Part shown: positions 9,447 through 64,000 of the stretch, piece after piece
Layout: the number at the start of each line of letters is the position of its first letter
How positions within the stretch are numbered: position 1 is the first letter of the stretch
From: Bacteroidales bacterium UBA1223
Lineage (GTDB): Bacteria; Bacteroidota; Bacteroidia; Bacteroidales; P3
Assembly (NCBI GenBank): GCA_002309155.1
Contig: DBXB01000025.1
Coordinates: forward strand, 19,589 to 83,588
Direction of reading: 5' to 3'
Length of the DNA: 64,000 nt
Notes under the pieces: model-generated
Seen by the model: the letters and a program-made list of their open reading frames with translations, nothing else
What the model was told of the DNA's origin: nothing
The model's database searches: none
Position numbers and translations under genes: made by a program

Positions 9447-9449
9447 TGT

Positions 9450-10080: not shown

Positions 10081-10222
10081 GGGGGAGTTAAGGGGAGTTA
10101 AGGGGAGTTAAGGGACAATAGCAACGGATGGCACCATTTGTCCTTTAACTTCTATAACTTCTTTTAACTTCCCATTGTTTTACTATATTTTTTAATCGTT
10201 ACTTAAAGGGTTTAAAGGGTTG
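10081..10222. repeat. intergenic element copy B (3x GGAGTTAAG tandem, conserved core, TTTAAA units)
   Basis: gggggagttaaggggagttaaggggagttaagggacaatagcaacggatggcaccatttgtcc ... gttttactatattttttaatcgttacttaaagggtttaaagggttg. Confidence 0.85.
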
Positions 10223-10251
10223 TCTAATCACTTTTCACTAATCACTTAATG

Positions 10252-15340: not shown

Positions 15341-15400
15341 TTTTGCCTGCTAGTTTATATAATGTATATTATTCTATGTTATAAGTAGTATATGGTGAGT

Positions 15401-15727
15401 TTACTTTTCGGATTCAATTTTCAGTTCGTATGGCGGACCGGCGACCAGGCCGATGCCGAGAGTGTCGAGTTCTTTGTCAATGCGTGAGATTCTGATGGAT
15501 TCCTGGTATTGTTTCTGCATTTGAACCCTTTGTTCGTGCATATAGCTCAACTCTTTCTGCAAGTTCTCTTTTTCTTTGTTGAGGTTCTCTACCTGATAAC
15601 GCATCGAGACCATGATAAGGCAGAGTACGAGGATGATGAACAGAAGGAACAGCTGGTTGGTGAAGAATTCCGATTCTAGTACGTCACCTCCGAGAATCTG
15701 GAGGAATTTCTTGTTTCCCTTTTTCAT
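15401..15727 (-). CDS. ftsL: FtsL-like small bitopic division protein
   Basis: 108 aa, one TM plus coiled-coil, 4-nt overlap with the rsmH stop, between rsmH and ftsI. Confidence 0.6.
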   Translation of the reverse strand: MKKGNKKFLQILGGDVLESEFFTNQLFLLFIILVLCLIMVSMRYQVENLNKEKENLQKELSYMHEQRVQMQKQYQESIRISRIDKELDTLGIGLVAGPPYELKIESEK

Positions 15728-20800: not shown

Positions 20801-20871
20801 GGTCGTTTGGCCGAGGGGCTAGGCACAGGTCTGCAAAACCTGCTACTCCGGTTCAAATCCGGAAGCGACCT
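20801..20871 (+). tRNA. tRNA-Cys (anticodon GCA)
   Basis: hand-folded cloverleaf: 7-bp acceptor (one G-U), 5-bp anticodon stem CAGGT/ACCTG with loop CTGCAAA, T-arm TCCGG-TTCAAAT-CCGGA, U discriminator; no encoded CCA. Confidence 0.9.
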
Positions 20872-20879
20872 CAGGATGT

Positions 20880-24148: not shown

Positions 24149-24227
24149 TGGAGTAAGCCCCTCTTCTCAGTCCGTTGAAAATACGTTGTCGGGTTAAACC
24201 TAACAAACAAAGTTTTTTTTGTTGAAT

Positions 24228-24260
24228 TTTGTCGCAAAAATTGTGTATTTTTGCGACAAA
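24228..24260. repeat. perfect 13-bp-arm inverted repeat downstream of the beta-helix gene
   Basis: TTTGTCGCAAAAA-ttgtgt-ATTTTTGCGACAAA. Confidence 0.8.
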
Positions 24261-24429
24261 ATATAAATGGCATAATATACCTCTTACATCTTTTTCGCTT
24301 CATATTTTCACTTTAGCGGTGCTCTAGGCCATTCTCTGCGGTCAGGTAGCCCTCTTACATAATACATTATCAGTCGTCTGATATGCTTGATTTTATAAAG
24401 TTTCTTTTAATTTTGTCAAAATAAATTAG

Positions 24430-24437
24430 TATCTTTG
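24430..24437 (+). promoter_or_regulatory. -7 box TATCTTTG, candidate promoter of the R-M gene with ~320-nt leader
   Basis: TAnnTTTG match in AT-rich spacer; no credible ORF before 24758. Confidence 0.45.
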
Positions 24438-24757
24438 CAGTTCGAAAATATAATAATTGTAATCTGCCAAAGGCTGCGAATACCTTTGAATATTAATATA
24501 TGAAATAAGCAACGAAAACAACATAGAATAAGAATAATAGAATAACGATAAATACATAATTTAGAAGCGTTTTTGCTTTTCAAACTACTCCGAAATCGCC
24601 AAATTTCATAGTACTGTAGAAGAAAGCAGAAATGCTCGCGGGTATCCGTGAGCTTTCTTGTTTACAGTACAGGCTTTGGCGAGCCTCGGGGTAGAACAGA
24701 AAGTTTCACGGATTTCTTTTTAGTATTTTTTTTATTTGAATAAACACCCATTGCCCC

Positions 24758-27049: not shown

Positions 27050-27051
27050 CC

Positions 27052-27255
27052 ATGCCTTATAAAAAACGCATACTCATCATATTACTTTTCCTTATTCTCT
27101 TCCTCGCCTGCACTAAAGAACCTGCTCCTGACAACGGTGGTGGTGCATCTTCCTATGACGAGCATCATTGGGATTGGGGCGACAGTAGCAAGGGGCAATA
27201 CAACGATGGTGAGGGAACAATGGACTGGCACCTATCCCACAACAATCCACGTTGA
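27052..27255 (+). CDS. tiny lipoprotein (67 aa), unknown function
   Basis: starts 2 nt after the R-M stop; signal plus lipobox 'LILFLAC'; followed by a terminator. Confidence 0.4.
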   Translation: MPYKKRILIILLFLILFLACTKEPAPDNGGGASSYDEHHWDWGDSSKGQYNDGEGTMDWHLSHNNPR

Positions 27256-27288
27256 CCAGCAATAAAATGTTTTCATAATAGGGAAAGA

Positions 27289-27320
27289 GGGGTAACCTCA
27301 CGAGGTCGCCCCAATTTTTT
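27289..27320 (+). terminator. intrinsic terminator after the R-M/lipoprotein unit
   Basis: GGGGTAACCTC..GAGGTCGCCCC hairpin followed by AATTTTTT. Confidence 0.65.
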
Positions 27321-27589
27321 CACATTATCATCCTAGCGGAGGCCGAACCGCTGTATCTGCACTTCGGAGGCAGACCAACTGTTTCTTTTTACGATTAACG
27401 CCCGATGAGGATAGACTTCGCGATTGTGGCGAAGCGAAAGTTCCTCAAAGGGCGTTTTATAGATTGGTGTGGAGATATGACAAGTTGCAAAAAAATATCA
27501 GCCCCCACCGCATTATTATTAATGATTGAGCATAAAATATTGATAATAAATTACAATATTCTTTAACCGTTATCATTCCACAATATTAC

Positions 27590-27636
27590 AACAAAAAACG
27601 CAAAAACCCTTCGCAGAATCTCATTTTCTGCGGAGG
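27590..27636 (-). terminator. intrinsic terminator after higBA
   Basis: CCTCCGCAGAA-aatgaga-TTCTGCGAAGG on minus strand followed by GTTTTTGCGTTTTTTG. Confidence 0.75.
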
Positions 27637-27685
27637 TTTAATAGTTCGACTCTCTAAGAGGTCTCGAAAAGTGGAGATGGTCGGA

Positions 27686-28021
27686 TCAGAGCACAGCGGC
27701 TACTAACGTACACATGTCGTCCTCGCGACGTTGGCGCTGCTGCTCCTCCACCTCCCGTTGTGCTATCACCAGGCAGTCGTGTTCGTAGCCGTACTGCATC
27801 TGCATCCACGAATCATACGGTATCCCTAACTCTTTTTCCAACGCCATTGCAAAGGCTACGGTGAAGCTACGCTTCCCCTTGATCAACTCGTTTAGATGAC
27901 TGGGAAGAATGCCAATCTTTGCGGCGAGCTCTTTCTGCTTGATTCCGCGCTCTTTCAACTCCTCATTGAGGATCTCGCCCGGATGTACTGCACGGAACCC
28001 TGTGATTCTATCGTTGTCCAT
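27686..28021 (-). CDS. higA: HigA-family antitoxin (XRE-type HTH)
   Basis: 'HPGEILNEELKERGIKQKELAAKIGILPSHLNELIKGKR' is the canonical HigA/VapI HTH; overlaps the upstream toxin gene by 14 nt. Confidence 0.85.
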   Translation of the reverse strand: MDNDRITGFRAVHPGEILNEELKERGIKQKELAAKIGILPSHLNELIKGKRSFTVAFAMALEKELGIPYDSWMQMQYGYEHDCLVIAQREVEEQQRQRREDDMCTLVAAVL

Positions 28022-50777: not shown

Positions 50778-51923
50778 TTATTTCAGTCCGAGAGTGAATT
50801 CTGCGACTACTTTCGAGCGTCGGACGCTGTAAATTGCAAGGGAGTCGCCCTCATTAACCGGCACGGGGGTTCGGGCAATGGCAGTACCGTTAATCATGAA
50901 TTGGTTGGCTGATCCATCAGGGATGCTTAGTGACAGTCCACCGTCCTCGGATGAGACTTGGAGTACGTTCTCATCGTGGGATATGTAACGGTATATCTGA
51001 TTGCCCATATCGTCGAGAATCTCCGGGAAGCAAATCTTGAAGAGACGGCGGTTGGCAGCAGTTCCGTTGGGAATAATCATCTGTTTGTCGCCGTGCTTCA
51101 GAATTACCAGTGTCAGTTTTGACACCGATTTGCCATTGAGGGTGGAGAGTATAGTGTCGAGAGAGGGGCGATTCTTGGGCGAGGGGTCGAGGCACTTAAC
51201 TATCATATCGTTGACGGCAGGGGTGACGTCTTCGGGATTCAGATCTATGGGTTCTTTGTATTGCTTTCGTTCCACCCATTTTGACCATTTGTCGAACGTT
51301 CCGTCAAAAAGGTGTTGATAGGGGTTGGCGCCGGTCAGTAGAATGGTTAGGACTATTCCCAGGGTGAAGATGTCAGATTGTTCGCTGATTTTGTCATCAG
51401 GACAGCGGTAGCCGTCAGTACCGATGCTGGCTTTCACGGCCTTACCGTCGGGAACTGACCAGTCGAAGTCGGTGAGGACAATCTTCACGGGAGCATCAGA
51501 GACTACCATAACCTGTTCGGGTTTCAGGTCGTGGTGGATGATGCCCTGACCATGAATAAGTTGTACGCATCCCACGAGCTGTTTGGCAACCTCAAGGCGG
51601 CTCTCGTAGTCGAGATGGGTATCCATCCACTCCGACAGGTTCACGCCTGGCAACAATTTCTTTACTTGGTAGAAGAGTCCGTCGACCACGAATTGTTCAA
51701 CGATGGTCTCGATACTGTCACCAAGACTGTTGAGACGAGGAACCATGATTTTCTGATTCTCTAAGAATTGTTTGAATTCGGGACTCATCTCGGTAGGGTC
51801 GCTGTAGGCTTTGAAGAAGTACTTTTTGCCACCTTTCTCAGCGATATAGCTGTCGCAGTAACTACCGATATTTATCTTCTCAAGGATTTGATATCCATTG
51901 ATTGTTTCTCCAGTTCGGATCAT
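50778..51923 (-). CDS. Hanks-type Ser/Thr protein kinase with C-terminal FHA-like domain
   Basis: 'KKYFFKAY' (VAIK Lys), 'IIHHDLKPEQVMV', 'LTDFDWS', 'SDIFTLGIVL', 'PKNRPS'; C-terminus 'ISHDENVLQV...IPDGSANQFMINGTAI...VNEGDSLAI'. Confidence 0.8.
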   Translation of the reverse strand: MIRTGETINGYQILEKINIGSYCDSYIAEKGGKKYFFKAYSDPTEMSPEFKQFLENQKIMVPRLNSLGDSIETIVEQFVVDGLFYQVKKLLPGVNLSEWMDTHLDYESRLEVAKQLVGCVQLIHGQGIIHHDLKPEQVMVVSDAPVKIVLTDFDWSVPDGKAVKASIGTDGYRCPDDKISEQSDIFTLGIVLTILLTGANPYQHLFDGTFDKWSKWVERKQYKEPIDLNPEDVTPAVNDMIVKCLDPSPKNRPSLDTILSTLNGKSVSKLTLVILKHGDKQMIIPNGTAANRRLFKICFPEILDDMGNQIYRYISHDENVLQVSSEDGGLSLSIPDGSANQFMINGTAIARTPVPVNEGDSLAIYSVRRSKVVAEFTLGLK

Positions 51924-51987: not shown

Positions 51988-53208
51988 TTAGGATTCGGCA
52001 TTATTGCCGTTCATTTTTATGAATTCGTCATTTAGATGAAGGTCGTCAAACGGTGGCTGTATTGTCACGGGGTTGTCATAGTAGAAGAGGGTAGGGGCTA
52101 AGACCAGACGGTAGTAGATACTCTCGAACCGGGGTTCTCCGTCGTTATTGATGATGGCGAACGAGGGGTTGGTTACGTAAGAGTATCCTGTATCAGGATT
52201 GGTATTCCCTCCCGTGCTGAAAATGGTGTACAGACGACCGTCGTAGAAGGATTCTACTCCGTTTGTCACAGGTTCATGACTGCGGAGGATCATATCGATG
52301 TTGTTGATTTCGCTGAATTTGTCGAAGTGAGATGGTCCGAACTCGAAGCGGGTGTCGGTGGTCTGAATGACATTCATGTGACGAGGATCGCTCCATATCA
52401 TGTTGGAGAGGATGCGGTTGCGGATGATGTCGTCACAAATCAGTTCACCAGTCTCGTCGGACACGAGGCACTGGTCAAAGTATTCTTCGCGTGGAAGTCC
52501 GCCGTGGACCAGAAGGATGTTGTTTTTTCTGGTTTTGAGCAGTAAGTAGGAAGGCAGATAGGAGAAGTAGTCGGCGAAACTGTCGAGGAATTCGGTGTCA
52601 TTGCAGTATTCGTTCAGCAGGGGGCAGGAATTGGCAGGGATGACGCGAGAGATGAGCATGCCCTCAACGCTTCCCACGAGTTCGTGGTTGCCTTTCAACA
52701 GTATGCAGCGGTCTCCAAGGATGGTCTTCAGGGTGAAGAGAAGCTTTAGGTATTCAAAAAGGATAGCTCCACGGTCCAGGTAGTCGCCAAGGAAAATGAA
52801 ACGGGCGTTGTTGAGATAATCATAATCCTTGGAGAGGCTGAGCTTCGAGAAAATCGTTGCCAGCGAGTTGTAGTCGCAGTGAGTGTCGCCGATCACAACG
52901 ATACGATTGTCCTCGTCTGACTGGCTGATGTCGAGAAGTCTGTAATAGTCTTGCTTGGGATTGTTGGTGAAGAATTCCTTCGCAAAAGTGATGAAGTCGG
53001 GAAGGTCTTCTTCGTTGATATCCTTACGGCACTCGGTCAAGGCGGTCAGTATCTGCTCGCGGCAGTCAGGCTCCTGTTCGTCGGATGACGGAGTAGTGTG
53101 AACCGTGGAGGGGGCTCTCTTCAGCAGGTCTATTAGTTGTTTCCACAAATTTTCCATGGTGTTCTGGTTGTTTAGGGTTAAAAAGGGCATGGCCAATAGG
53201 ACGACCAT
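51988..53208 (-). CDS. PPP-family (calcineurin-like) Ser/Thr protein phosphatase with ~100-aa N-terminal extension
   Basis: 'VVIGDTHCD', 'FIFLGDYLDRG', 'LLKGNHE', 'LLVHGG', 'LRSHE'; alternative start 'MENLWKQ' at 53157. Confidence 0.85.
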   Translation of the reverse strand: MVVLLAMPFLTLNNQNTMENLWKQLIDLLKRAPSTVHTTPSSDEQEPDCREQILTALTECRKDINEEDLPDFITFAKEFFTNNPKQDYYRLLDISQSDEDNRIVVIGDTHCDYNSLATIFSKLSLSKDYDYLNNARFIFLGDYLDRGAILFEYLKLLFTLKTILGDRCILLKGNHELVGSVEGMLISRVIPANSCPLLNEYCNDTEFLDSFADYFSYLPSYLLLKTRKNNILLVHGGLPREEYFDQCLVSDETGELICDDIIRNRILSNMIWSDPRHMNVIQTTDTRFEFGPSHFDKFSEINNIDMILRSHEPVTNGVESFYDGRLYTIFSTGGNTNPDTGYSYVTNPSFAIINNDGEPRFESIYYRLVLAPTLFYYDNPVTIQPPFDDLHLNDEFIKMNGNNAES

Positions 53209-53230: not shown

Positions 53231-53893
53231 TTAGATGGTTACGCTTTTGTCGACGGAAGAGGCAGAGACAGTCTTTCCGAGAGCTTCGAGGAGAGTCTCG
53301 AAATTGGTGCTGCTGTTGAGGTCAACGCCAAGGGTGATGTTGGATTTGGGGACAACCTTGAGCTGCTGGTACAAGGGATCGTCGGGAGCGAAGATGAAGA
53401 GTTGGATACGCTCGGCCTGGAGCTGCTGCTTCAGATAGTCGATGTCGCCACTCACGCCGAGTTCCGACGTGGTGTGACTGTTGACATTCTTGGTGCCGGC
53501 GTCGGTGAAGAGGACCACGACCTTGTGACAGCCTTTGCGCCATTTGCTGGTGCGGACGGCGTACCAGATAGCGTCGAGGGCGGACTCCTCGTAGTCGCCA
53601 CCGCCAGTGGCTGTCAGTTCGGTGAGTTGGGTGTTGGCGAAGACGTGTTCGTCATTGGTGAAGTCGAAGGTGTTGATGATGGGCTCGGAGTCGACTTCGA
53701 AGTCACGATAGCCCATGGCGCGGACACGCCAGTCGAGGGTTACATTCGGGGTTCCGTTGAAACCCTTGACGAGAGATTCGACATTGTGCTTGACATTGTT
53801 GATGCAAGGAGACATTGAACCTGTGCAGTCAAAGCAGAATACTACGTCGGCAACGCCGCGAACTTTGATGTCTTTTGAAGATTGGGTAATCAT
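53231..53893 (-). CDS. von Willebrand factor type A (vWA/TerY-like) protein with intact MIDAS
   Basis: 'VVFCFDCTGSMS' (DxTxS), 'TATGGGDYEE', 'VVVLFTDAGT'. Confidence 0.85.
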   Translation of the reverse strand: MITQSSKDIKVRGVADVVFCFDCTGSMSPCINNVKHNVESLVKGFNGTPNVTLDWRVRAMGYRDFEVDSEPIINTFDFTNDEHVFANTQLTELTATGGGDYEESALDAIWYAVRTSKWRKGCHKVVVLFTDAGTKNVNSHTTSELGVSGDIDYLKQQLQAERIQLFIFAPDDPLYQQLKVVPKSNITLGVDLNSSTNFETLLEALGKTVSASSVDKSVTI

Positions 53894-54199: not shown

Positions 54200-54943
54200 T
54201 CAACGCTTCACGGGATAGCGGTGCATATTGATGATCATCTTTTCCCATCCCAGTTTGTCTTTGCGGGCTTTCATAATTCTCAGACCTTCTCCGTAGATGG
54301 GATCGCTGTTTTTTATCAAATTGTCTGCAATGTTGTCGCCGACTTTTGATGCTGACAGCTTCATCATGTGGTAAGCGATAAGTTCGCAGAACCCTTCGTC
54401 TTCCTGTTGGGTGAGTCGTTTGTCGAGGTCGTTCTCGTTAATCCATACATGTCCCAGCTCGTGTGACAGGACTTCTATGAAAATGATCTTGGGCATCCCG
54501 TCTTGAAGCAAGATGGTGTGGTACATCTTCCCGTTGCGGTATACGGTTTGCGCCAGACCGATTGGTCTGGAGGTCCTGGATACTCTTTCCTTCAACACTT
54601 TTGCTGGTGCTAAACGAATTGAAATGTTGTGCGGGTCGAGGTTGATTCCTATCTCGGCGAGTTTTTTCAGGATATAGTTGAGGTGCTCCCGCAACAGATC
54701 AGGAGTCTTGGCACTCATCGACACCACGCTAGTCGAGAGACAAGAACTGCAGTATCTGCTGTCTGGGTCTATGCGCTGATTCTCAGATGTGACGTCTCTC
54801 TTGGAGAGCAGTCGTCCACAGCAGTGGCAATACCCCCTATAGTGCTTGCTACAGATGGCATTGCCCCATATGTCTTTGTAATAATGGCCGTTGATAGGCT
54901 GGTTGCATTCTATGCATTCGGGATGGTGACTGGAAAAAAACAT
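54200..54943 (-). CDS. LIM-like zinc-finger + DA1-like zinc metallopeptidase
   Basis: N-terminal 'CIECNQPINGHYYKDIWGNAICSKHYRGYCHCCG...YCSSC'; 'VLSHELGHVW' HExxH and downstream 'EDEGFCELIAY'. Confidence 0.72.
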   Translation of the reverse strand: MFFSSHHPECIECNQPINGHYYKDIWGNAICSKHYRGYCHCCGRLLSKRDVTSENQRIDPDSRYCSSCLSTSVVSMSAKTPDLLREHLNYILKKLAEIGINLDPHNISIRLAPAKVLKERVSRTSRPIGLAQTVYRNGKMYHTILLQDGMPKIIFIEVLSHELGHVWINENDLDKRLTQQEDEGFCELIAYHMMKLSASKVGDNIADNLIKNSDPIYGEGLRIMKARKDKLGWEKMIINMHRYPVKR

Positions 54944-55020: not shown

Positions 55021-56808
55021 CTATTCAAGGAAAGCCTTGTCTTTGCCTATATTGTTGAGGAGTAGTCCCACGAACATACAGAGGAAAGAAAGGGCTAAGA
55101 TACGGGGTGCGTAATCGAAAAGGAATGGGTTGTGAGTAAGAAAAGCACCACTGCAGTCATGTTTCAAATTGTATCCGAAAATCATAAGTTCCGCAAGTCC
55201 GATAAAATACGAATATACGAAAGTGATTCCTATAATGGTGATGGATCTTGTCAGTGTATTTTTCCTTGGATTTGATGGACTGTTGTTTTTTATGGTTCGG
55301 TATACAAAAGACCAAGTGAAGACAAATAACAAAACACAAAGAAACGCTATTACTGCGGTCCATCCCCAAGAGGCATTGCCGGCATATTCAAGGAAATAGT
55401 AGGTGTTGCTCTCACATACTAGAGGCAACCATGCTGCGGCAAGGGCGGCCGCAAGTTTTACGAACCAGAGTTTGTTGTAAGGCTCGATCTCTATGGATTT
55501 GTGGATTTTCTTTTCAGATTGTTCGGACAGTGTTTCTTTTCGAAGAGAGTTTAGGAACTTTCTTCTGAAATAATAACGACTTCTACGGTTGAACAGTTGA
55601 ATTGCGAATAATATAAAAATCGCGAACGCCGCTATCCAACATAATGTGAACATTAAGAATGTGGGTCGATGAACGGAAATCGTCCACTTGATAATGGAAA
55701 ATGAAAAAATCAGTAGGGTCGGTATTATAATGAATGCGAACTGTGACCAATCACGCCCCCTACTGCCATTACGCACCATGCCTATTCCTCGCAGATCGTT
55801 CTCTGAGAAATACCATTCAGTGGCTTGTTTTTTAGTTTCAAGCAGAGTGCCGGTCAGCCTTTTGTCAATCAATGATAATCGTTGTGATGCCAGTTCGATA
55901 CAGGCTAGATTGTTGTATGTGCCTGTTGCAATATCGTGTCTGAATACATCGTCCATCTCTAGGTTTGACGATTTGTATCTGTTCTTTATGTCTTGTTTGA
56001 ACCATTTGTTGTCATCAAAAAGGGTGTCTGATTTCGAGATGATGTCGACCCAGCGTTGCTCAGCCTCTGCCAGTTCACGTAGTAAAAATATATTATTTTT
56101 GACTATTATGTCAGTCTTTTCTTGGGCACTATTCTTGATGTCGCAAGAAGAATGCGACGAGAATAACTTTTTCAAAACACACTTTTCATCTTTGTCTTCC
56201 TGGATATTCTCATTTTCATCTTTGTCTTCCTGGATATTCTCATTTGCATATTTACGTTGGTAATAGTATTCGGCTTTCGCAACGATAGCATGATAGAGTG
56301 GATTCCGGTGCAGATTTGAATAAATGGTATTGAAGTGGGGCGAGTTGCGGAACACTTCCGTGTGTTCCATGTCGAACATGAAATCCAGAATGATTTTTCG
56401 GATAATGGGAATGTTTTTTCCTTCTGTAAATTGTTCCAGGTTTGAGTAGTATAAACCACCTACTTTGCTGTCCACTTCATGGGGAATGTATTTGTCGATC
56501 TTTTCTGCTTGATATTCCGTGCTATATGATTCAGTGATGACCTTTGTGAGGCGGTCTCTTGTCATGTCGTCAGTCGAGGTCTCAAGTTTTAGAATTGGTC
56601 CGAGACTGTGAACATCGTCAATGTCATAATGTATATAGAAATAGGCACCGTCTTTTCTAAATGAGCAGAATATTGGATAACGTGGGGAACCGGGATTGTT
56701 CTCATAATCATTGTCTCCAACTTTAACTGGTTTATAGTTGAAGACAGTGATGCCGAGTCCCAGGTCTGACGACTCATGGTCTAGGGCAAAGAAATATCCG
56801 TAGTTCAT
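55021..56808 (-). CDS. hypothetical protein: ~370-aa soluble N-terminal region + ~6 TM helices
   Basis: 595 aa; start overlaps upstream stop by 4 nt; TM helices from 'FAFIIIPTLLIFSFSII' onward; in-frame 30-bp duplication. Confidence 0.7.
   Translation of the reverse strand: MNYGYFFALDHESSDLGLGITVFNYKPVKVGDNDYENNPGSPRYPIFCSFRKDGAYFYIHYDIDDVHSLGPILKLETSTDDMTRDRLTKVITESYSTEYQAEKIDKYIPHEVDSKVGGLYYSNLEQFTEGKNIPIIRKIILDFMFDMEHTEVFRNSPHFNTIYSNLHRNPLYHAIVAKAEYYYQRKYANENIQEDKDENENIQEDKDEKCVLKKLFSSHSSCDIKNSAQEKTDIIVKNNIFLLRELAEAEQRWVDIISKSDTLFDDNKWFKQDIKNRYKSSNLEMDDVFRHDIATGTYNNLACIELASQRLSLIDKRLTGTLLETKKQATEWYFSENDLRGIGMVRNGSRGRDWSQFAFIIIPTLLIFSFSIIKWTISVHRPTFLMFTLCWIAAFAIFILFAIQLFNRRSRYYFRRKFLNSLRKETLSEQSEKKIHKSIEIEPYNKLWFVKLAAALAAAWLPLVCESNTYYFLEYAGNASWGWTAVIAFLCVLLFVFTWSFVYRTIKNNSPSNPRKNTLTRSITIIGITFVYSYFIGLAELMIFGYNLKHDCSGAFLTHNPFLFDYAPRILALSFLCMFVGLLLNNIGKDKAFLE
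56183..56242. repeat. perfect 30-bp tandem duplication inside the 595-aa gene
   Basis: ttttcatctttgtcttcctggatattctca x2, encoding NENIQEDKDE twice. Confidence 0.95.
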
Positions 56809-58601
56809 AGTTTCGAAAGAGTTGTGATGTAATCAGAGATTAATACAGACGGTCCTTTGTGGTCTTTCGGGTTTTCTCCATAAACTTTTCCTTCCGCTTT
56901 TTTTAATCTATCAGAGATGAAAGTGTATTCTTCTTTCATTTCCGGCACCTGTCGGATATCACCAAAGGCGATAAGATATATCAAATTCTGTAGATGTTCC
57001 CAGAAATGATTTCTATATTCTTCTTTGTCGGGAAAGAGAGATTCGATCAACACATCGTTATCATCTTTAATTTTGTTGTAAAGAGTTCGGAGTCGTAGAA
57101 GGTCATCGAATTTCTTCACACAGCGAGTATGGATGGAGGAATCATTACAGAACAACTCTTCCAAAAACTCCACCAGACACATGGGTCTTGCTTCCCCCTC
57201 ATCAGTTATGGAAAGTGATTCGTAACGCATCCGCATCATGTCGTGCAGGTTGTACAGAAAGAGGTAAGGAGTGTTTGTGGGACAAGCGCCAATGCTGATT
57301 TGGTAATATTTATTGTTCAGTGAAATCTGCTCTTCATGTAGACGCTCGTATATGGCGGCCCAGTATGGTGAGGTGAACATAAAGTAGAGTTGATCGTTGG
57401 GGCCGAAAAGGTTGTTAGTCAGTTTTTTCTTGACGTCATTGTACAGAATGCGTTCGTCGCAAACAATTAGTAGTGGGTTACCATCGGTATCTGTATCTTT
57501 GGCAATATATTTGTAAATGTTGAATATATAGGGATACATTTTCTCCTGTTCCTCAAGGGTTTTATCGATGATGGGGGAGTGGTCGCTATTTTCGGAAGTA
57601 TTCAACTGTTCGAGTAATTTAGACAGTATGTCTATGATTTCTAATAAGTGATATCCGTATTCACGTTGTTTTGATTCGTTGAAGTCGAGTAGATAATCCA
57701 AAAGTATTATGCTGTACTGTTTTTTCTCATCATACAATTTACTGAATGCGTTTTTGATGTTATTGACGCTCTCTATTGTTATGTTGCCACTGACATCTAT
57801 GCGTTCAAGGTCTTTTCTTATTATCTCTTCTTTGTTGATGTTTGAACAATTTTTATTCAGATCTTGCATTTTCTTATCACCCGTGCAGTCATCCAATAGG
57901 AGCATATTCCAATCTTTGCCAAAATCGAAACCGACTCTTTTTATCTCTTCTTGTTCTAGCAATTCTTTGTCTTCCCGTTCCGAATGGAAAACGAATGGTG
58001 ACACCCCTTCGTTATGATTGCCTATCAGATAGGATTGTTCTACAAGGCGTCCTTGAAGCTCGGCGTATTCCACAGCTGTCATAAGATTATACAAACCGAC
58101 ACTGTCATTTCGAGTAATCTCACTAAGAGCATATTTGAACTGTTCTATTGTGAAATTCGATATGTTTCCATTATCATCAAATAGAATTGGAACATAGTAA
58201 TTCCAAATACTGCTTTCCATGACATGTCGGTAACGGCGTAGTTGGCACTTAAGATTAAAAGAATCTTTTATTTCATCATCTGTGACGTGCTCACCGATTC
58301 TGTCCATACAATCTAAGAAAGTGAGATGTATAATAGGTCGGGAGGGACCATAGTCAGGACCTGTAAATGCCTTGCGTTGACAGAAATCATAATATGAACC
58401 GTCAATAAGATAATCTACCCTATGATAAGCTAATAAAAAATCAATTGATGATGCGCTATTTATTCCAATATAAATGTTTGACTTGTTTATCTCGTCGATA
58501 AACATGTCTATTGTGAAAGAGTTTGTCTTATCAAGGGCGACTAAGTAATTGTTGGTGAACCATGCTGTAGTCTTAAAACAATCGCCTTGTCTATGTTTCA
58601 T
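56805..58601 (-). CDS. hypothetical protein with central receiver (REC)-like module
   Basis: 598 aa; 'WNMLLLDDCTG' (acidic pair) and 'YSIILLDYLLD' (Asp302, nt 57696-57698) fit REC beta1/beta3; flanking domains unrecognised. Confidence 0.6.
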   Translation of the reverse strand: MKHRQGDCFKTTAWFTNNYLVALDKTNSFTIDMFIDEINKSNIYIGINSASSIDFLLAYHRVDYLIDGSYYDFCQRKAFTGPDYGPSRPIIHLTFLDCMDRIGEHVTDDEIKDSFNLKCQLRRYRHVMESSIWNYYVPILFDDNGNISNFTIEQFKYALSEITRNDSVGLYNLMTAVEYAELQGRLVEQSYLIGNHNEGVSPFVFHSEREDKELLEQEEIKRVGFDFGKDWNMLLLDDCTGDKKMQDLNKNCSNINKEEIIRKDLERIDVSGNITIESVNNIKNAFSKLYDEKKQYSIILLDYLLDFNESKQREYGYHLLEIIDILSKLLEQLNTSENSDHSPIIDKTLEEQEKMYPYIFNIYKYIAKDTDTDGNPLLIVCDERILYNDVKKKLTNNLFGPNDQLYFMFTSPYWAAIYERLHEEQISLNNKYYQISIGACPTNTPYLFLYNLHDMMRMRYESLSITDEGEARPMCLVEFLEELFCNDSSIHTRCVKKFDDLLRLRTLYNKIKDDNDVLIESLFPDKEEYRNHFWEHLQNLIYLIAFGDIRQVPEMKEEYTFISDRLKKAEGKVYGENPKDHKGPSVLISDYITTLSKL

Positions 58602-58621
58602 GTTTTTTCAAATTTGAATGG

Positions 58622-59320
58622 TTATTTAATGCTGAGAGATTGTTTGATGGCTAAAAACTTTTCGTATAAATTGGTGTGGTTGTTATCATCTTCGACTGAT
58701 TTGATTTTTGCCAGAATGGGGTGAAATGATTTGCTAAGTAGTGAATCATAGATTCTGTATCTTCCCCTTACATGCTGGAAAATATAGATATTATTGAAGA
58801 GTGGTAGTTGATTTTGCCATCCAACTTCTTTGGTTTCATTGTTGTACCGCACAACGACATCATTGTTGTAACCAAGTTCTTTGTCGTGTAGGTATAGGGT
58901 GAATTCTCCAGCAGAAGTGCTTATTCCACAAGTGTTTAGAATTTGGTTTATGCTATTTCCAAGCTTATTAAAATCAATGCTAGTTCCATTCAAAAAATTA
59001 ACAGGCACTTTTATTTTATCTAGACATAATGCGATGAGTTGGTAATCGTTGTCTTTATAAAGGTGTATTTTACAATCTGTCAATTGTCCGAGTATCTTTT
59101 TGTCTTTTTTAATGGTTTTGGAAATATTGAGTGTGTCTACCCAATTTATATTATAATCATTATTAATTCTGTCCTGGATTTCGCAGGAACAAGAATCGAA
59201 TAATATCTTGACTTGATCGGTCTCTAAGAGTCCATATAAAACATCCGAAGAATCCTTCTCTTCCCAAGATTCATAACTGTTCAATGTCTCTGTTCTTGTG
59301 ATGGCTATTATGGTATTCAT
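58622..59320 (-). CDS. hypothetical protein (232 aa)
   Basis: ORF in operon context (20- and 30-nt gaps); same AT-rich composition as neighbours; no motif recognised. Confidence 0.6.
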   Translation of the reverse strand: MNTIIAITRTETLNSYESWEEKDSSDVLYGLLETDQVKILFDSCSCEIQDRINNDYNINWVDTLNISKTIKKDKKILGQLTDCKIHLYKDNDYQLIALCLDKIKVPVNFLNGTSIDFNKLGNSINQILNTCGISTSAGEFTLYLHDKELGYNNDVVVRYNNETKEVGWQNQLPLFNNIYIFQHVRGRYRIYDSLLSKSFHPILAKIKSVEDDNNHTNLYEKFLAIKQSLSIK

Positions 59321-59350
59321 TGTTCAAAGGTTATGATGGTTTGATGTTAA

Positions 59351-62300
59351 TTATTGACGTTTTTCGCTGTATACGGTGTAGAGTAATTCTGATAGTGTGT
59401 ATTTGCAGTCTCGGACGGCGTAGTCGAGTGCCGAGAGTGGTATGAACGGTATTTGTTGGGGCATTACCTTGGAGGATGGAATGGAGCGACCCGAGTGGAT
59501 GACAACATTACCTAGATTTTCACGTCCAAAGAATGAACGAAATTCATCGGTTATTGCTGTTTTTTCTTCATCCGTTGTAATACTATAAGCCCCATAAATT
59601 TTGTCTAGTATTCCCTGATGTATGCAAATGAAATCGAATTTCTCTTTAAAACCTGCAACGGTATCATTAATTTTAAACTTGCCATTGTTCTTCACTATTT
59701 TTGCAATGGTGTTTTCTTCCGTGGGGTGGAGTATCTTTTCAGCCGACTCATTGTTCTTCACTATTTTTGCAATGGTGTTTACTTCATGTTTCTCTAACCG
59801 TCCCAATGTGTCTGTGACCGGTCTGTCGTATCCCAATATGTCAATATGGTTTATTTCATTATTCCGGTCCTTTACAATGTCTATGTCAAAGAAGCAGATT
59901 CCTTTGTCTTGATACTGTTCTATGACGCTATAATCCTGCTTTTTTGTTATCGCTTCTGTGCCGTAGATTAAATGATATATTTGATTGATTTTTTCTTCTT
60001 CTGTATTGTCTTTCTGGACGATATCAGAAACTTTATCAGATATTAAAAGGCTTTTCTCAATGTTTTTAATAATCAGACAAATGTATTTGTTATAAAAATC
60101 AGTATTCCATTCTTGATAGTCTTTATTGTATTTTTCAACCCATGTTTTTATTTCATTTCTTTTATGAGAATCTTGTTCCTGTTGTGACTCATTATGTTTC
60201 CCATACATGGTGCTGAAGATACGTTCGTCGACAATGGCAACCTTTGTCAGAGATGCTGCTATATGTTTATATAACCAGATGTCGCTATAAGGTGTATGGC
60301 GTAGAAGTCGGTCTGTCGAGTTTGAACCTGTTATGCTCTCCACAAACAGGGCTTTCTCAAGATATTTACTGTAGTTGTTTTCGTTGTTTCGTCCGGCATA
60401 ATGGGTTGAGAAAACGCAGGTGCCATCGTAACAATCAGCAGGAGCGTTTGCATTGTCTCGAATTATTATAGTATTGTCGCCTCTTTCGCCATAAAATTCT
60501 TTCGCTTGGTTATCAAGAATAGTCAAGCAAGGTATGGTTGGGAATCGACTTCTCAACCATTCCTTATAATAGGACGATGCTGTTGCTCCGTCAATCTTCG
60601 ATGTCAATGGATTGTTCTCTAACGATTTTACAGTATATAACCTGCATGGAACATATTTGCTGATATTATTGACAATAGATGAATTGTCTGTTACAATTAA
60701 ATCATAACGAGACAATCTGTTGTCAATTACTATTTTCTTCAGAGACGTTTCGTCGGTGTTATTGACAATTATATAAATATAACCCTCATTGTTTCCCTCG
60801 CCTTTGTGAGATTTTGAATCTGATGCATCTTTATTATAGTGGATGAAGGCAATTTTTTTTGGTTTTGGCAAGGCTATGATATATTCAATTGCTTCTTGAT
60901 TGCTAAAATCAGATTCATTCGTAGTCTCTCCAGGGAGAGGAGTCAATTCTGTGGCTCGAACTTTGACTGCAGGAGGTAATGTGCTTGGTATATCGGTGTC
61001 CAATTTGTACTTTCTCAACCATGCTGCTGACAGTCGTATCTCTTTAAGTCCTTTGTAGTTCTCGTTTGGAGTTCCATCATCATTTATGTATCTTTCTCCT
61101 AATTTTTTGGATAGATTGTTCGCTTCTCCTTTTTGATTCGGCATATTGCAGATTATGGAGAGATAATATAGGTCTTTGGCATTGTTCTTATATACCTCTT
61201 CCTTTATCAATCTGTCGTTATCACCAAGGAGGTTCAATTTTAGAGACAGTATGCGTTGACCGTATCTTGAGCGAGGATAGCAATGCTTTGCGGCATTGCG
61301 TATAATGTTTTCAAAAATTGAGAATAATGCCTGTCGTCCCATAATTCCTCCAGGAATGTCAATATTTATTTTCCGTAGATGGTCTAGTCCGTTGCCTCTC
61401 ACTCCGTCAAAATCGTCAAATTGGATGATAATCTGATCGCTTGATGTATATCCTTCAGAAAAAGCAATATAGTCAAGCAATAGGTTCTGTGGTTTTGATA
61501 GAGTATCAGCATTTTTGTGACGATTATAATGTAGGTCAGGCTTTAGCTCATCATATACAGCGTCTTTGATGTTTATTGTAGTTGGTGCTGGAATATAATC
61601 GGTTGCCATTGTGGCAATGTAGTCTTGTCTCTCTTGCAGGTAACCAAGGAAGCGACTTAACCCGACTAGAAATGGTAGTTGCGGTTGTTTTATTCCATTA
61701 TACTTGTCATACTTTTGAAATATGGTATCCGAACTATAGTCCCCTAATACAAGTCCGCCTTCAACAATCTGCTTTGGAGAAGAGAGTTGCTGTCGAATAA
61801 AGTACATCACGTGGCTACCCAAATTGTGGCTCATATTGCGAGACATAATAGATGCTTTAACGGATTTTTCAGTCTCGCGTTCGATTTTTTCTCTGTTTAG
61901 GGCCTCGTTAAAGTCATCATCAATTTTTCTAAGAGATAAGATGATGTCACGAATTTGGATAAGATTATTTTTCTCGTGGTGCTTTCTGTTAACTTCTTTA
62001 ATGAAATATTTATAGACTTTTTCGGCCGATTCGTCAGCTTCTATCATAAGTGTTCCCCATGATTCGTACTTCAGAGTACCTATGTTAAAGCAAGAAAACG
62101 ATTTTGGAATGGTAGGATCTTTTTGTTCCGGGGCAGTATCACGTATATACTTTGGGAATTCATCCTTACTAGTGTCTGTGTAGTCTTTGCTTAAGATGCA
62201 TTTAATAAACTGGTTGTAATATATTTCCCCTTGGCTCATCACTTTTTTGTCATCTATGTATTGACGAGATCCATAATATGTTAATACGTTATTCTCCGAG

Positions 62301-62848
62301 TCCAGTTCATATTGAATGTCGGTCTTAGCGTTTATTTCGTTAAAACTACGATGAATGGTGTATATTTCATGTTCTTCAATCTTCCCATCCTTCACTATTT
62401 GTGCACAGAACTGACTGTATTTTCCATATAGATAGTATGCCCAACTATCACAATCCGTGACTTTGGTATAATAACCTTTATCTGTTGTCAAAGAATAGAT
62501 ATCACGACTGTTAGGATTATTTTTTGTCTCCATCTTTAGGATTACTTTCCATCTCTTTTTTTTGATGATTCTGTAAATCGTCCTTGATGCGAGTTTAAAT
62601 AACTTATCGTATATACCATCTTTATTGTTGATAAACTCTGTTAGTCCTATTTTGGGTTTTATTGTTGTGGCGCTTTTCTCGTATATCTCACTGGCTGTTG
62701 TGCTTGAGCAGTCCATGAAAAAAAAGTGTAAAAAAATGTCATATCTTCTTTTTGAAGAAGAGGTGAGTTTACTCCGACGTTCTAGAAAATTCTCAAACCA
62801 TGCAAGAGGGTCGCTATATCTAAGTCTTTTTCTGTTCAATGAGTCCAT
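59351..62848 (-). CDS. large cytoplasmic histidine-kinase-like (HisKA-like + GHKL ATPase-like) protein with C-terminal receiver-like modules
   Basis: 1165 aa, no TM; 'SIMSRNMSHNLGSHVMYF' (His341 at 61826-61828), N-box 'ALFSIFENIIRNAAKH', 'NYKGLKEIRLSAAWL'; later 'YDLIVTDNS', 'KVAIVDERIF', 'FDFICIHQGIL', 'VVIHSGRS'. Confidence 0.6.
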   Translation of the reverse strand: MDSLNRKRLRYSDPLAWFENFLERRSKLTSSSKRRYDIFLHFFFMDCSSTTASEIYEKSATTIKPKIGLTEFINNKDGIYDKLFKLASRTIYRIIKKKRWKVILKMETKNNPNSRDIYSLTTDKGYYTKVTDCDSWAYYLYGKYSQFCAQIVKDGKIEEHEIYTIHRSFNEINAKTDIQYELDSENNVLTYYGSRQYIDDKKVMSQGEIYYNQFIKCILSKDYTDTSKDEFPKYIRDTAPEQKDPTIPKSFSCFNIGTLKYESWGTLMIEADESAEKVYKYFIKEVNRKHHEKNNLIQIRDIILSLRKIDDDFNEALNREKIERETEKSVKASIMSRNMSHNLGSHVMYFIRQQLSSPKQIVEGGLVLGDYSSDTIFQKYDKYNGIKQPQLPFLVGLSRFLGYLQERQDYIATMATDYIPAPTTINIKDAVYDELKPDLHYNRHKNADTLSKPQNLLLDYIAFSEGYTSSDQIIIQFDDFDGVRGNGLDHLRKINIDIPGGIMGRQALFSIFENIIRNAAKHCYPRSRYGQRILSLKLNLLGDNDRLIKEEVYKNNAKDLYYLSIICNMPNQKGEANNLSKKLGERYINDDGTPNENYKGLKEIRLSAAWLRKYKLDTDIPSTLPPAVKVRATELTPLPGETTNESDFSNQEAIEYIIALPKPKKIAFIHYNKDASDSKSHKGEGNNEGYIYIIVNNTDETSLKKIVIDNRLSRYDLIVTDNSSIVNNISKYVPCRLYTVKSLENNPLTSKIDGATASSYYKEWLRSRFPTIPCLTILDNQAKEFYGERGDNTIIIRDNANAPADCYDGTCVFSTHYAGRNNENNYSKYLEKALFVESITGSNSTDRLLRHTPYSDIWLYKHIAASLTKVAIVDERIFSTMYGKHNESQQEQDSHKRNEIKTWVEKYNKDYQEWNTDFYNKYICLIIKNIEKSLLISDKVSDIVQKDNTEEEKINQIYHLIYGTEAITKKQDYSVIEQYQDKGICFFDIDIVKDRNNEINHIDILGYDRPVTDTLGRLEKHEVNTIAKIVKNNESAEKILHPTEENTIAKIVKNNGKFKINDTVAGFKEKFDFICIHQGILDKIYGAYSITTDEEKTAITDEFRSFFGRENLGNVVIHSGRSIPSSKVMPQQIPFIPLSALDYAVRDCKYTLSELLYTVYSEKRQ
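59684..59780. repeat. 31-bp repeat with 66-bp period inside the 1165-aa gene
   Basis: attgttcttcactatttttgcaatggtgttt at 59684-59714 and 59750-59780, encoding NTIAKIVKNN twice. Confidence 0.9.
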
Positions 62849-62868: not shown

Positions 62869-63516
62869 TTATTTACAAATAATTATATGGTAATCAAATT
62901 GCTTCGATTTGCCAGGCATGGTGAAATCGCCCTCTTTGATTATTTTTTTCAGACCTGCTGATCGCAAGCTCTCTTTTACATATTCTGGGTTATACATTAT
63001 GACGTTGTGCTGTTTTGAGAAGTAGCTTTCGCGTTCGGTGCAGGTAACCCCAGGAATGTCGGTCTTTAGGAATGTCAAGAAAAGAAGTCCTGTGTCAGGA
63101 ACCAAGATATTGTGGAGTTTCTCGATGAATAGGGGTTCGTCATTGGGGAGGATGTGGTGCAGGAGGAGCTTACAGAAAACGACATCGAATTTTGATTCGT
63201 CAGACATATCGAATAGGTCGATGGCCTTGAAGCATGCTTTGGCTTTTCTTCCTCGACGTGATGCTCTTTTGATGACCTCTTCCGACACGTCTATTCCTGT
63301 CACTTGGCTGAACCCGGCCTGCATCAAGTGAAGGCATAGACGCCCGCTTCCGCATCCAACGTCGATGATTCTTGACGACTTGTCCAATGTATCAAGGAAT
63401 TCGTTTAACATTGGGTCAAACCCACCTCTCATCCACGGAAGGTTGTACAATCCGTTGTAGTGGCGGGAATAGATCTGATCCCAGTCGCCTTTATATGAGT
63501 AACTGTCATTCTTCAA
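62869..63516 (-). CDS. class I SAM-dependent methyltransferase
   Basis: motif I 'IIDVGCGSGRL', 'GIDVSEE', 'FDVVFCKLLLHHI'. Confidence 0.85.
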   Translation of the reverse strand: MKNDSYSYKGDWDQIYSRHYNGLYNLPWMRGGFDPMLNEFLDTLDKSSRIIDVGCGSGRLCLHLMQAGFSQVTGIDVSEEVIKRASRRGRKAKACFKAIDLFDMSDESKFDVVFCKLLLHHILPNDEPLFIEKLHNILVPDTGLLFLTFLKTDIPGVTCTERESYFSKQHNVIMYNPEYVKESLRSAGLKKIIKEGDFTMPGKSKQFDYHIIICK

Positions 63517-64000
63517 TGGAGACGGGTATTGATTGATTGTTGCTGCGTTTGTAAATGGCTATAGGGCTGTGGACGAATTTTGTGTCTGTCATGGTGATTC
63601 TTCCACGAATACTGTTGTAGTCGATGGCTTTCAAGAGATCATCGACAGATGTGCTGTTTTTCTTCGCTTCAGTGATGACAGTTGCAAGATATTGGCAGAT
63701 GGTGTATCCGAAAACAGCGGGGTAGTTTGGGTCGCGCTGGTTGCGTTTGTAAAATTCGTCGTAGAACATGCGAGACTCATCGTTGTAGTCTTTGTGGAAA
63801 TATGAACTTGCGAAGATGATATTGTCCTGGTCCTTTTCGTTGATGCCTTCCCACACCTCGGGTGCGTCAAAGGAGCCAACGCCTAAAATGAGTATTTCTT
63901 TGTTCCTCTCTCTGATCTGGTTTACGGCGTTGATAAGGTCGCGGTTGCGGGCGATGACGAAAACAAACTGTACATCCTTTGTCAGCCTTTTGGCAAGGAA
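63506..64000 (-). CDS. periplasmic-binding-protein type-1-like protein, 5'-truncated by the window edge
   Basis: reading frame stays open from 63856 to 64000 ('...FVFVIARNRDLINAVNQIRERNKEILILGVGSFDAPEVWEG...'); the GTG at 63856 in the ORF track is internal; alpha/beta pattern resembles LivK/ANF-receptor-type binding proteins. Confidence 0.5.
   Translation of the reverse strand, partial: FLAKRLTKDVQFVFVIARNRDLINAVNQIRERNKEILILGVGSFDAPEVWEGINEKDQDNIIFASSYFHKDYNDESRMFYDEFYKRNQRDPNYPAVFGYTICQYLATVITEAKKNSTSVDDLLKAIDYNSIRGRITMTDTKFVHSPIAIYKRSNNQSIPVSIEE

Follow-up and report, generated by a model that had tools for sequence, protein, structure and literature searches.

The 64,000-nucleotide (nt) stretch of Bacteroidales bacterium UBA1223 analyzed here (contig DBXB01000025.1, positions 19,589 to 83,588, termed the window) carries on its minus strand four consecutive genes, designated A, B, C and D, which encode a large soluble protein with a histidine-kinase-like core, a small fast-evolving protein, a protein with a putative receiver-like domain and a membrane protein. 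These genes follow directly on genes for a substrate-binding protein (SBP), the binding component of an ATP-binding cassette (ABC) importer, and for a methyltransferase (MTase), and comparison with related loci suggests that the SBP, the MTase and the N-terminal domain of A are exchanged between lineages as one unit. The whole operon may constitute an import-coupled, atypical two-component-like relay in which an imported ligand acts through A and C on the membrane protein D. The features concerned are as follows.

59351-62848, minus strand: gene A, an open reading frame (ORF) for 1165 amino acids (aa).

61970-62848, minus strand: residues 1-293 of A, a hypervariable N-terminal alpha/beta domain (AlphaFold2 (AF2) model, conservation and co-variation).

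60974-61969, minus strand: residues ~294-625 of A, a predicted DHp hairpin and GHKL CA domain (AF2/Foldseek and motifs).

60242-60973, minus strand: residues ~626-869 of A, a predicted beta-rich linker and Rossmann/receiver-like modules (DSSP of the model and hhalign).

59351-60241, minus strand: residues 870-1165 of A, a putative C-terminal receiver-like domain (DSSP of the model and invariant columns).

58622-59320, minus strand: gene B, an ORF for a soluble, fast-evolving protein of 232 aa in the slot between A and C.

56805-58601, minus strand: gene C, an ORF for 598 aa, with the codon for Asp302 at 57696-57698.

55021-56808, minus strand: gene D, an ORF for 595 aa, whose start overlaps the stop of C.

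62869-63516, minus strand: a class I, small-molecule type S-adenosylmethionine-dependent MTase of 215 aa (Pfam).

63506-64000, minus strand: the 3' part of an SBP gene, encoding the C-terminal 164 aa of a HAAT/LivJ-like lipoprotein SBP (Peripla_BP_6), with a frame open to the window edge.

The four ORFs have exactly the lengths and spacings given for them in the first-pass annotation, which was made from the DNA letters alone, with 30 nt between A and B, 20 nt between B and C, and a 4-nt ATGA stop/start overlap (-4 nt) shared by C and D. None of the four proteins could then be assigned end to end to a named family, and the same outcome was obtained with Pfam, NCBIfam and PADLOC models, none of which matches A-D significantly; the lone sub-threshold model signal is DUF6688 on the transmembrane (TM) region of D. 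All four have many homologs and are therefore real genes and not chance ORFs. Profile-profile comparisons revealed no hidden homology among A, B, C and D, no TM segment is predicted in A, B or C, and no intrinsic terminator was found on the minus strand inside A-D, although such a sigma-70/terminator scan is uninformative for Bacteroidota.

The operon begins upstream of 62848 and runs past the edge of the window. The MTase gene (Pfam Methyltransf_25/11/31/23, E 1e-17; UbiG/CpaM/TehB-like in NCBIfam, all below cut-off) lies 20 nt upstream of A and its start overlaps the stop of the SBP gene by 11 nt, while the SBP fragment is homologous to the Peripla_BP_6 proteins of four related loci (L006, L001, L005, L016). 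Exact look-ups with the A and D proteins of the window gave no record, but the part beyond the edge can be read in a strain of the same species (locus L115, on a contig reached through homolog P0122), in which C is 97% identical, the left-flank genes are the same and LivH-LivM-LivG-LivF-SBP stands directly upstream of A, and a 78%-identical relative (L006) likewise has the full operon. The order is LivH, LivM, LivG, LivF, lipoprotein SBP, (MTase), A, B, C, D, making ~9-10 genes, and the upstream half is recognized by Pfam as two BPD_transp_2 permeases, two ABC_tran ATPases and one Peripla_BP_6 protein (L001-L006, L115, L116). A signal peptide and a lipobox Cys mark the SBPs as exported lipoproteins, which makes the transporter a true importer. 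The SBPs are remotely LivJ-like (E 1e-8 to 1e-12) and highly diversified. No substrate class could be deduced from NCBIfam, and all importer components fall far below the equivalog cut-offs.

This arrangement was found to be conserved among 113 loci (27 from reference genomes, 80 from metagenomes and the remainder from look-ups), which were annotated with iterated profiles. Where at least 5.5 kb of upstream sequence is available (68 loci), an SBP is encoded in 61, LivH and LivM in 60, an ABC ATPase in 65 and an MTase in 26, and where at least 5.5 kb is available downstream (74 loci), C is present in 65 and D in 67; an ORF of 200-395 aa fills the B slot in nearly all loci. The co-occurrence of the four genes, which the first-pass annotation had named as a check, was thus observed, with synteny in dozens of genomes, but its view of a self-contained four-gene system was not, as 60-65 of the 68 loci have an SBP importer before A. 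The type of importer can change. In a Prolixibacteraceae locus (L019) A is preceded by an SBP_bac_3 protein (polar amino-acid type), BPD_transp_1 and one ABC_tran, and in Chitinophaga (L023) by an NMT1/SsuA-type SBP, BPD_transp_1 and ABC_tran. Hence the constant element is an SBP importer beside A and not any single transporter family. The hosts are Bacteroidota (Bacteroidales, Prevotella, Paludibacteraceae, Tannerellaceae, Chitinophaga, Pedobacter, Prolixibacteraceae), Verrucomicrobiota (Akkermansia, Puniceicoccales) and one Desulfobulbaceae metagenome-assembled genome (MAG). The arrangement is modified in a few of them: the MTase is fused to A in homolog P0118, the C of the Desulfobulbaceae locus has 1080 aa, and in one Akkermansia locus A has 1794 aa, a D of 431 aa comes straight after it and the Liv genes lie downstream. 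No earlier description of the operon was found in the searchable literature.

The A family is very large. It comprises 630 clusters at 90% identity by a word-indexed search and, by an exhaustive search of 1.84 billion representatives with a hidden Markov model (HMM), 2,875 clusters at 50% identity, 2,360 of them at E<=1e-10, and the source name was always 'hypothetical protein' among the homologs examined. Sequence conservation across the family is limited to the C-terminal ~72% of A. The N-termini that precede this part, compared over 67 loci, form 28 or more clusters with no relation to one another, range from 169 to 895 aa and have no match in Pfam apart from the one MTase fusion.

The evidence for an exchangeable unit comes from mirror-tree comparisons of pairwise similarity, for which loci were de-duplicated by kinase-core similarity and significance was assessed by Mantel permutations. 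The N-terminus of A co-varies with the SBP (rho 0.44) and with the MTase (rho 0.72), and the SBP co-varies with the MTase (rho 0.78; all p=0.0005), while the SBP follows neither the kinase core (rho -0.02, p=0.68) nor, to any extent comparable, the permease LivM (0.15) or the adjacent ATPase (0.14), and the rho between the N-terminus of A and its own kinase core is 0.08. Similar A N-termini were accompanied by similar SBPs in 44/44 locus pairs (Fisher p 6e-54). The SBP, the MTase where present and the N-terminus of A therefore appear, from these sequence comparisons, to be exchanged as one contiguous cassette, apart from the kinase core, with one boundary at the ATPase/SBP junction and the other at the sensor/DHp junction within gene A. 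The exported SBP cannot contact the cytoplasmic A, so that the most economical functional account of why the two are exchanged together is a ligand common to both, and residues 1-293 of A are a candidate cytoplasmic ligand-sensing domain.

The remainder of the operon behaves differently. By the same kind of comparison the permeases, the ATPases, the kinase core, B, C and D seem to evolve together as a backbone, with rho values of about 0.52 for core and B, 0.51 for core and C, 0.62 for core and D, 0.79 for C and D, 0.67 for D and the second ABC ATPase and 0.56 for C and the second ABC ATPase. The stop/start overlap of C and D, together with their rho, suggests that these two proteins work jointly. 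A pairing of the hypervariable B with the N-terminus of A was also considered and was rejected (rho 0.04, partial 0.01), as B tracks the core of A (rho 0.51 in that comparison).

The A-D block is AT-rich (37.6% G+C, compared with 47.5% for positions 1-50000 of the window, where the lowest value in any 7.8 kb is 42.7%), as had been noticed from hand counts, which were themselves inexact: the genes A-D have 34-40% G+C, not 32-35%, the nearby vWA gene has 54%, not ~60%, and the peptidase gene 48%, not ~50%. The conclusion drawn from those counts, that the block is compositionally foreign, does not follow from its composition by itself. The G+C content of A-D is below that of the flanks in 45/45 loci, by about 10 points and in any host, with means over the 45 loci of 36.1% for A-D, 35.3% for the SBP and MTase genes, 44.8% for the permease and ATPase genes and 46.2% for the flanks. 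Low G+C is therefore intrinsic to A-D in every host examined and is, alone, no proof of recent foreign origin, and its use as a sign of recent transfer was rejected. The SBP and MTase genes of the window are exceptional in this regard, being host-like at 44-45% G+C.

Models were made with AF2 for A and C, and motif invariance in A was measured on an alignment of 65 sequences (the homolog alignments for A and C comprise 65-68 sequences). The long helix 294-354 of A contains an H-box, IMSRNMSH341NLGSH346VM, in which H341 and H346 are invariant (65/65); the N-box residues E513, N514, R517, N518, K521 and H522 are all invariant, as is the G2-like stretch K599/G600/K602/E603/R605/S607/W610, G2 being partly recognizable. 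The first-pass annotation had read the H-box with His341, the N-box, the G2-like stretch, a non-canonical G1 and the lack of a TM segment from this one protein, and each of them was borne out. The AF2 model of A (pLDDT 79, pTM 0.70) has a pLDDT mostly of 80-95 across residues ~294-625, and its comparison with the PDB by Foldseek, the kind of search on which the earlier GHKL/histidine-kinase reading had been staked, returned histidine-kinase (HK) modules or mitochondrial kinase relatives at ranks 1-18, rank 5 excepted. The best matches are CpxA (4biz/4biu, E 9e-5, probability 1.0, within a range of 0.94-1.00), further matches include the EL346 HK, a bacteriophytochrome (BphP) HK, BceS (8g3a_D), LvrB, 5c93 and CckA-CA, and the mitochondrial GHKL kinases PDK and BCK come next. 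At the level of the predicted fold these comparisons support a histidine-kinase DHp+CA core at the center of A. In the same model the N-terminal domain abuts the DHp helix, and it gives weak GAF/phytochrome-like Foldseek matches.

After the core, residues ~664-720 of A are predicted to form a pseudo-receiver, of which hhalign aligns 664-719, weakly, with the REC domain of a canonical hybrid HK, and the region of residues ~626-869 also contains the invariant STH816 and G841-NNSTDRLIR850. In the C-terminal domain the order given by DSSP is beta-alpha-[insert]-beta-alpha-alpha-beta-beta-alpha, with a helical insert of ~100 aa; D874-E875-R876 follows beta1, S1119 follows beta4, and the invariant H1077 would occupy the acceptor-Asp position of a receiver, as judged by strand pattern. 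The placing of these C-terminal residues at REC positions is thus an inference from the strand pattern of the model. A near-exact internal duplication (NTIAKIVKNN…ENTIAKIVKNN) was noted at residues ~1008-1050 of A (~59700-59830), in the insertion of the C-terminal receiver-like domain, and it partly overlaps the low-confidence AF2 segment 1035-1055.

Protein B has no match in the PDB or Pfam, and only H145, F181 and H183 are invariant among 20 sequences. Protein C, which has homologs in at least 384 clusters, gave a more confident model than A (pLDDT 85, pTM 0.87), in which a novel N-terminal alpha/beta domain (1-~225) is followed by a receiver-like region (~229-445) and a novel C-terminal helical bundle (~476-598). 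L234, L235, D238, D302 (in LLD302YLL) and S411, which follows a strand, are invariant, and W231 and D237 are conserved in >=90% of sequences. A profile of the C family gave 14 top matches in the PDB, all of them receiver domains (NtrC1 and PmrA among them), and in the alignments with NtrC1 and PmrA D302 coincides with the acceptor Asp, as expected from the receiver with Asp302 that had been proposed for C. Foldseek gave weak matches to PleD (E 0.03), a BeF3-REC structure (probability 0.69), a viral hybrid HK (E 9e-3, probability 1.0) and a cREC protein, and one C homolog (P0185) approaches cREC_REC (2e-5) and Response_reg (3e-3), both below cut-off. The C of the window has no match in Pfam, DNA-binding domains included, and its N-terminal alpha/beta domain and C-terminal bundle have none by Foldseek. 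These results suggest that C carries a receiver-like domain with an acidic pair and the acceptor Asp302.

Protein D consists of a ~353-aa N-terminal domain, placed in the cytoplasm by the positive-inside rule in TM prediction, followed by 6 TM helices (354-590), which agrees with the soluble region and ~6 TM helices first ascribed to it and with its coupling to C through the ATGA overlap. A word-based homolog search found 12 proteins, and members of the family have 6-8 TM helices and share the motifs RKxxLDFMFD, KAEYYYxR and AExxW in the cytoplasmic domain. Beyond the sub-threshold DUF6688 no relative of D was found in the PDB or Pfam. The D gene of the window contains a 30-nt tandem repeat (56183-56253, 2.4 copies, 95% matches), which encodes a duplicated ENIQEDKDEN in the cytoplasmic domain and is possibly a slippage-prone, length-variable linker.

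The operon shares several elements with classical two-component systems. A would combine a DHp hairpin and its His with a GHKL CA domain, a perfect N-box and a variable sensor-like domain before them, C would contribute a receiver-like domain with an acidic pair and an acceptor Asp, and both are encoded in one operon. It differs in that neither the A nor the C domain is found by sequence models, A has Asn after the His and D/N-MPN in place of the G1 DxGxG, and A has ~540 extra C-terminal residues that include a receiver-like fold with His at the acceptor site. C lacks a DNA-binding or known output domain and apparently has Cys for the conserved Lys, and the operon has an ABC importer and two further obligatory partners, B and D, built into it.

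It is proposed that these proteins form an import-coupled, atypical two-component-like relay, a reading to which we assign an even chance of being correct. The SBP would capture a specific small molecule outside the cell, the ABC importer would bring it in and the MTase, where present, would modify (methylate) it. The cassette-encoded N-terminal domain of A would then recognize the ligand in the cytoplasm or, alternatively, would recognize the loaded or working transporter, and the divergent kinase core of A (His341 and N-box) would be switched as a result. The signal would pass to Asp302 of C, possibly via the C-terminal receiver-like domain of A and via B, and C would act on the translationally coupled D, whose 6 TM helices and large cytoplasmic domain would provide a membrane output. 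There is precedent for histidine kinases that read an ABC transporter and not the ligand directly, as in flux sensing by BceAB-BceS and in PstSCAB-PhoU-PhoR.

Several observations weigh against such a relay. The residue after His341 is an invariant Asn (N342), not Glu or Asp, and the G1 position is D in 32/65 and N in 29/65 sequences (N568 here), followed by M-P-N with no GxG, so that, judging from these residues, ATP binding or autokinase activity of A may be weak, altered or lost. Pfam HisKA and HATPase_c give nothing on A even at E<=1, searches of PDB sequences with the A family profile or with single sequences likewise give nothing, and hhalign fails to align the kinase core with that of a canonical hybrid HK. 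The kinase homology of A would hence be visible at the level of the fold alone, and its assignment draws on one AF2 model plus the motifs. For C, the receiver evidence is weak match by match (best profile E 0.011), and an invariant C440-P441 stands where K-P is expected by strand pattern. B has no assigned role, no output chemistry was identified for C or D, and the MTase is absent from ~60% of loci. In addition, 6 variant loci keep the importer, A and B and have the C-D pair replaced by two unrelated proteins, the soluble cl8 (586-995 aa, with Big_2 in one) and cl9, which has 4-7 TM segments. A 'soluble + membrane' distal pair is thereby kept without detectable homology. Finally, the co-variation of the SBP and the A N-terminus could partly reflect linkage of adjacent DNA, and the sharp boundaries on both sides of the cassette argue against mere linkage.

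It was considered whether cl8 and cl9 could be divergent forms of C and D, and this was unsupported (hhalign probability <5%), though cl9 is also polytopic. In this subgroup (L026, L076, L090, L093, L094, L096, L101) vWA-domain proteins (cl13) often lie nearby.

As the catalytic acid beside His341 is missing and G1 is D or N, kinase activity of A is not to be assumed, and we therefore retain, at low probability, a non-signaling alternative in which A serves as a pseudokinase scaffold and joins B, C and D in a structural or regulatory complex, accessory to the transporter, that gates, assembles or metabolically channels the imported substrate without phosphotransfer. The degenerate G1, the missing acid and the Cys of C where receivers have Lys would all be explained in this way, and physical contact with the transporter would fit the co-evolution of D and C with the second ABC ATPase. 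What it leaves hard to explain without chemistry is that His341, His346, the N-box and Asp237/238/302 are kept across sequences at ~35% identity, and no enzyme domain that would process a substrate is detectable in A-D.

By analogy, the operon would work most like a transporter-coupled two-component system with Bce or Pho logic, although it is a member of no named family. As in those systems, a kinase with no extracellular sensor of its own is tied to an ABC transporter. The Bce module has an FtsX-type exporter-like permease, a membrane-embedded kinase (2 TM) and an OmpR-type regulator, and the Pho system has the membrane protein PhoR plus PhoU and PhoB. In contrast, the operon described here has a swappable SBP importer, a soluble A with a cassette-swapped N-terminus and, as its putative output, a membrane protein and no transcription factor. 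With a BPD_transp_2 importer, an A without TM segments and a C without a DNA-binding match, it does not have the make-up of a Bce-type module. The upstream half of relatives' loci has the canonical five-gene composition of HAAT importers (LivJ/LivHMGF, UrtABCDE), of which the 3' end of the SBP gene alone is visible within the window, but it lies below all substrate-specific cut-offs and is always followed by A-D.

The Bce parallel raises the prospect of competitor or xenobiotic surveillance or protection, in which a toxic or signaling metabolite is imported, the MTase, where present, detoxifies or marks it, A monitors it or the transport flux, and C and D mount a protective response at the membrane, for example efflux or remodeling of the envelope. 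The many types of SBP/N-terminus cassette, which imply many ligand specificities, the island-like flanks of the operon, its enrichment in dense gut and rumen communities and the structural similarity of A to BceS would suit such a role, and the MTase resembles detoxifying methyltransferases (TehB/TPMT/UbiG-like, below cut-off), though it occurs in a minority of loci (26/68). However, deliberate import of a toxin is counter-intuitive, the importers are SBP-dependent (HAAT/PAAT/NitT) with no BceAB-type exporter among them, and D resembles no known family of efflux or transport proteins, and we consider this role improbable. Nutrient or signal sensing, competitor-metabolite surveillance and defense all remain candidates for the physiological role.

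If the import-coupled relay is real, it represents a new signal-transduction architecture in which cytoplasmic sensing is hard-wired to a dedicated SBP importer, ligand specificity is exchanged as a DNA cassette that spans two or three genes and ends inside the kinase gene, and the output goes to a membrane protein in place of a transcription factor. The operon also defines four new protein families, namely B, the two terminal domains of C and the cytoplasmic part of D, together with an extreme outlier among histidine kinases, A, which escapes sequence models, and this is relevant to two-component censuses of Bacteroidota. Members of the A family, all unannotated, number in the thousands and occur in dominant gut genera, among them those of Bacteroides uniformis and B. 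fragilis, and also in Prevotella and Akkermansia, and the operon is experimentally tractable in B. uniformis. A bolder and only tentative generalization, which we think somewhat less likely than the relay itself, is that the operons make up a hitherto overlooked and very widespread class of import-gated signaling or conflict systems in which the cassette (SBP, optional MTase and matching cytoplasmic sensor domain) programs a common, highly derived kinase-receiver relay that controls a dedicated membrane effector. In that event gut Bacteroidota would be equipped with a modular set of receptors that covers dozens of extracellular small molecules, with competitor, host or phage-induced signals as inputs and a non-transcriptional output, possibly one of cell fate. 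Should the role be defensive or competitive, this would to our knowledge be the first conflict system known to be triggered via an ABC importer.

Directly downstream of D in the window lies a set of four further genes.

54200-54943, minus strand: DA1-like Zn-ribbon peptidase (Pfam).

53231-53893, minus strand: vWA protein (Pfam).

51988-53208, minus strand: calcineurin-like (Metallophos) phosphoesterase (Pfam).

50778-51923, minus strand: Ser/Thr kinase (from the Pkinase annotation of its L006/L115 homologs, phmmer E 1e-261).

The peptidase-vWA-phosphoesterase-kinase set also flanks the operon in L006 (18101-22277) and L115, and in a distant locus (L017, 3-4580) genes of these four types, together with another vWA gene, lie upstream of LivH, a recurrence in an independent lineage which suggests that the module is linked to the operon. 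It may be a functionally linked kinase/phosphatase module or an adjoining defense system. The set had been likened to a TerY-P triad, with which it shares a vWA protein, a phosphatase and a Ser/Thr kinase side by side; the likeness is partial, for the vWA protein and the Ser/Thr kinase are there but the phosphatase is of the Metallophos and not the PP2C type, and a DA1-like Zn-ribbon peptidase is present. In at least three loci, L011 and L057 among them, LivH has a Ser/Thr kinase gene immediately before it. In L115 (ENA ERZ28573591 scaffold_987, 9381-11278 and 13883-16205), no vWA or phosphoesterase gene was called between the DA1-like gene and the kinase, and C was called as two pieces of 119 and 425 aa; these differences may be due to frameshifts, pseudogenization or assembly errors and, if real, would mean that the distal genes are dispensable in that strain.

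More widely, the flanks differ between lineages. A survey of 134 flank ORFs from ~30 de-duplicated loci gave, by Pfam, VapE-like primases (6), LRR_5 proteins (5), Pkinase (4), Metallophos (3), vWA (3) and BrxL (2), and by PADLOC at E<=1e-10, PD-T4-6-like proteins (4), IetA (3), BrxL (2) and AriA/GajA/NsnB (2). The four flank ORFs that match the PADLOC PD-T4-6 and mad6 models are most likely the Ser/Thr kinases of the neighbor set. Over all loci, a BT4734/VapE-like primase cluster is present in 9 and an LRR_5 BspA-like cluster in 9, and a protein of ~1000 aa that contains three P-loop/AAA modules (AAA, AAA_lid_6, weak nSTAND3) lies beside the operon, on either side, in 15. Examples of this triple-AAA neighbor are found in L096 (770-3868) and L001 (21742-23954), and a 374-aa protein (cl1) recurs near the operon in 14 loci. 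In a B. uniformis-type locus (L116, 20175-21815), D is followed at a distance of 7-9 kb by three excisionase-like genes (HTH_17) and one for a tyrosine integrase, and the stretch in between encodes a hybrid histidine kinase of canonical type and a regulator of NtrC type; the B. uniformis operon may ride on, or adjoin, an integrative element. The A family was found in none of IMG/VR, INPHARED or PLSDB (2.9 M viral contigs, 50,697 phage records and 72,556 plasmids).

Such surroundings bear on the view of the first-pass annotation that the operon follows the logic of the Detocs defense system. Detocs (DtcA-DtcB-DtcC) has three genes, one for a kinase with TPR, one for a receiver that stands alone as a buffer and one for a second receiver that is fused to PNP or another toxic effector (10.1101/2023.01.24.525353). 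The operon resembles Detocs in having a cytoplasmic kinase-like protein with a non-standard N-terminal sensor domain, a putative receiver partner, a putative non-transcriptional output and a location in variable genomic regions. It lacks a standalone receiver, a REC-effector fusion and TPR, and it includes an ABC importer, of which Detocs has none; no PADLOC model, those of Detocs being unverified in PADLOC 2.0.0, was found on A-D at E<=1. As a lipoprotein SBP importer points to an extracellular small-molecule input and not to intracellular phage sensing, the analogy is strained and we do not maintain it.

An anti-phage or abortive-infection role, in which the N-terminus of A senses infection, A phosphorylates C and C opens or activates D to collapse the membrane, is accordingly judged unlikely. 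D is a plausible abortive-infection effector, yet no nuclease, NADase, PNP or pore-former domain is recognizable in C or D, and none of the 5027 PADLOC models matches A-D, as had been anticipated. The A N-terminus and B diversify fast, but the former co-varies with the SBP and with nothing phage-related, and no described phage-sensing logic needs an obligatory, family-swappable SBP importer. Consistent with defense are the AT-richness of A-D in all 45 loci, the patchy spread across phyla, the enrichment of mobile and conflict genes in the flanks and the integrase and excisionase-like genes near the B. uniformis copy, although guilt by association over ~30 loci is modest and the absence of the family from phage, viral and plasmid collections, while silent on function, means that it is without the carriage typical of many defense systems.

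Elsewhere in the window, positions 24001-28000 form an AT-rich stretch (36.9-41.1% G+C compared with ~48% around it), which contains an ORF of 763 aa on the plus strand (24758-27049) and lies a few kb downstream of a tRNA-Cys gene (20801-20872), and which may be acquired or fast-evolving.

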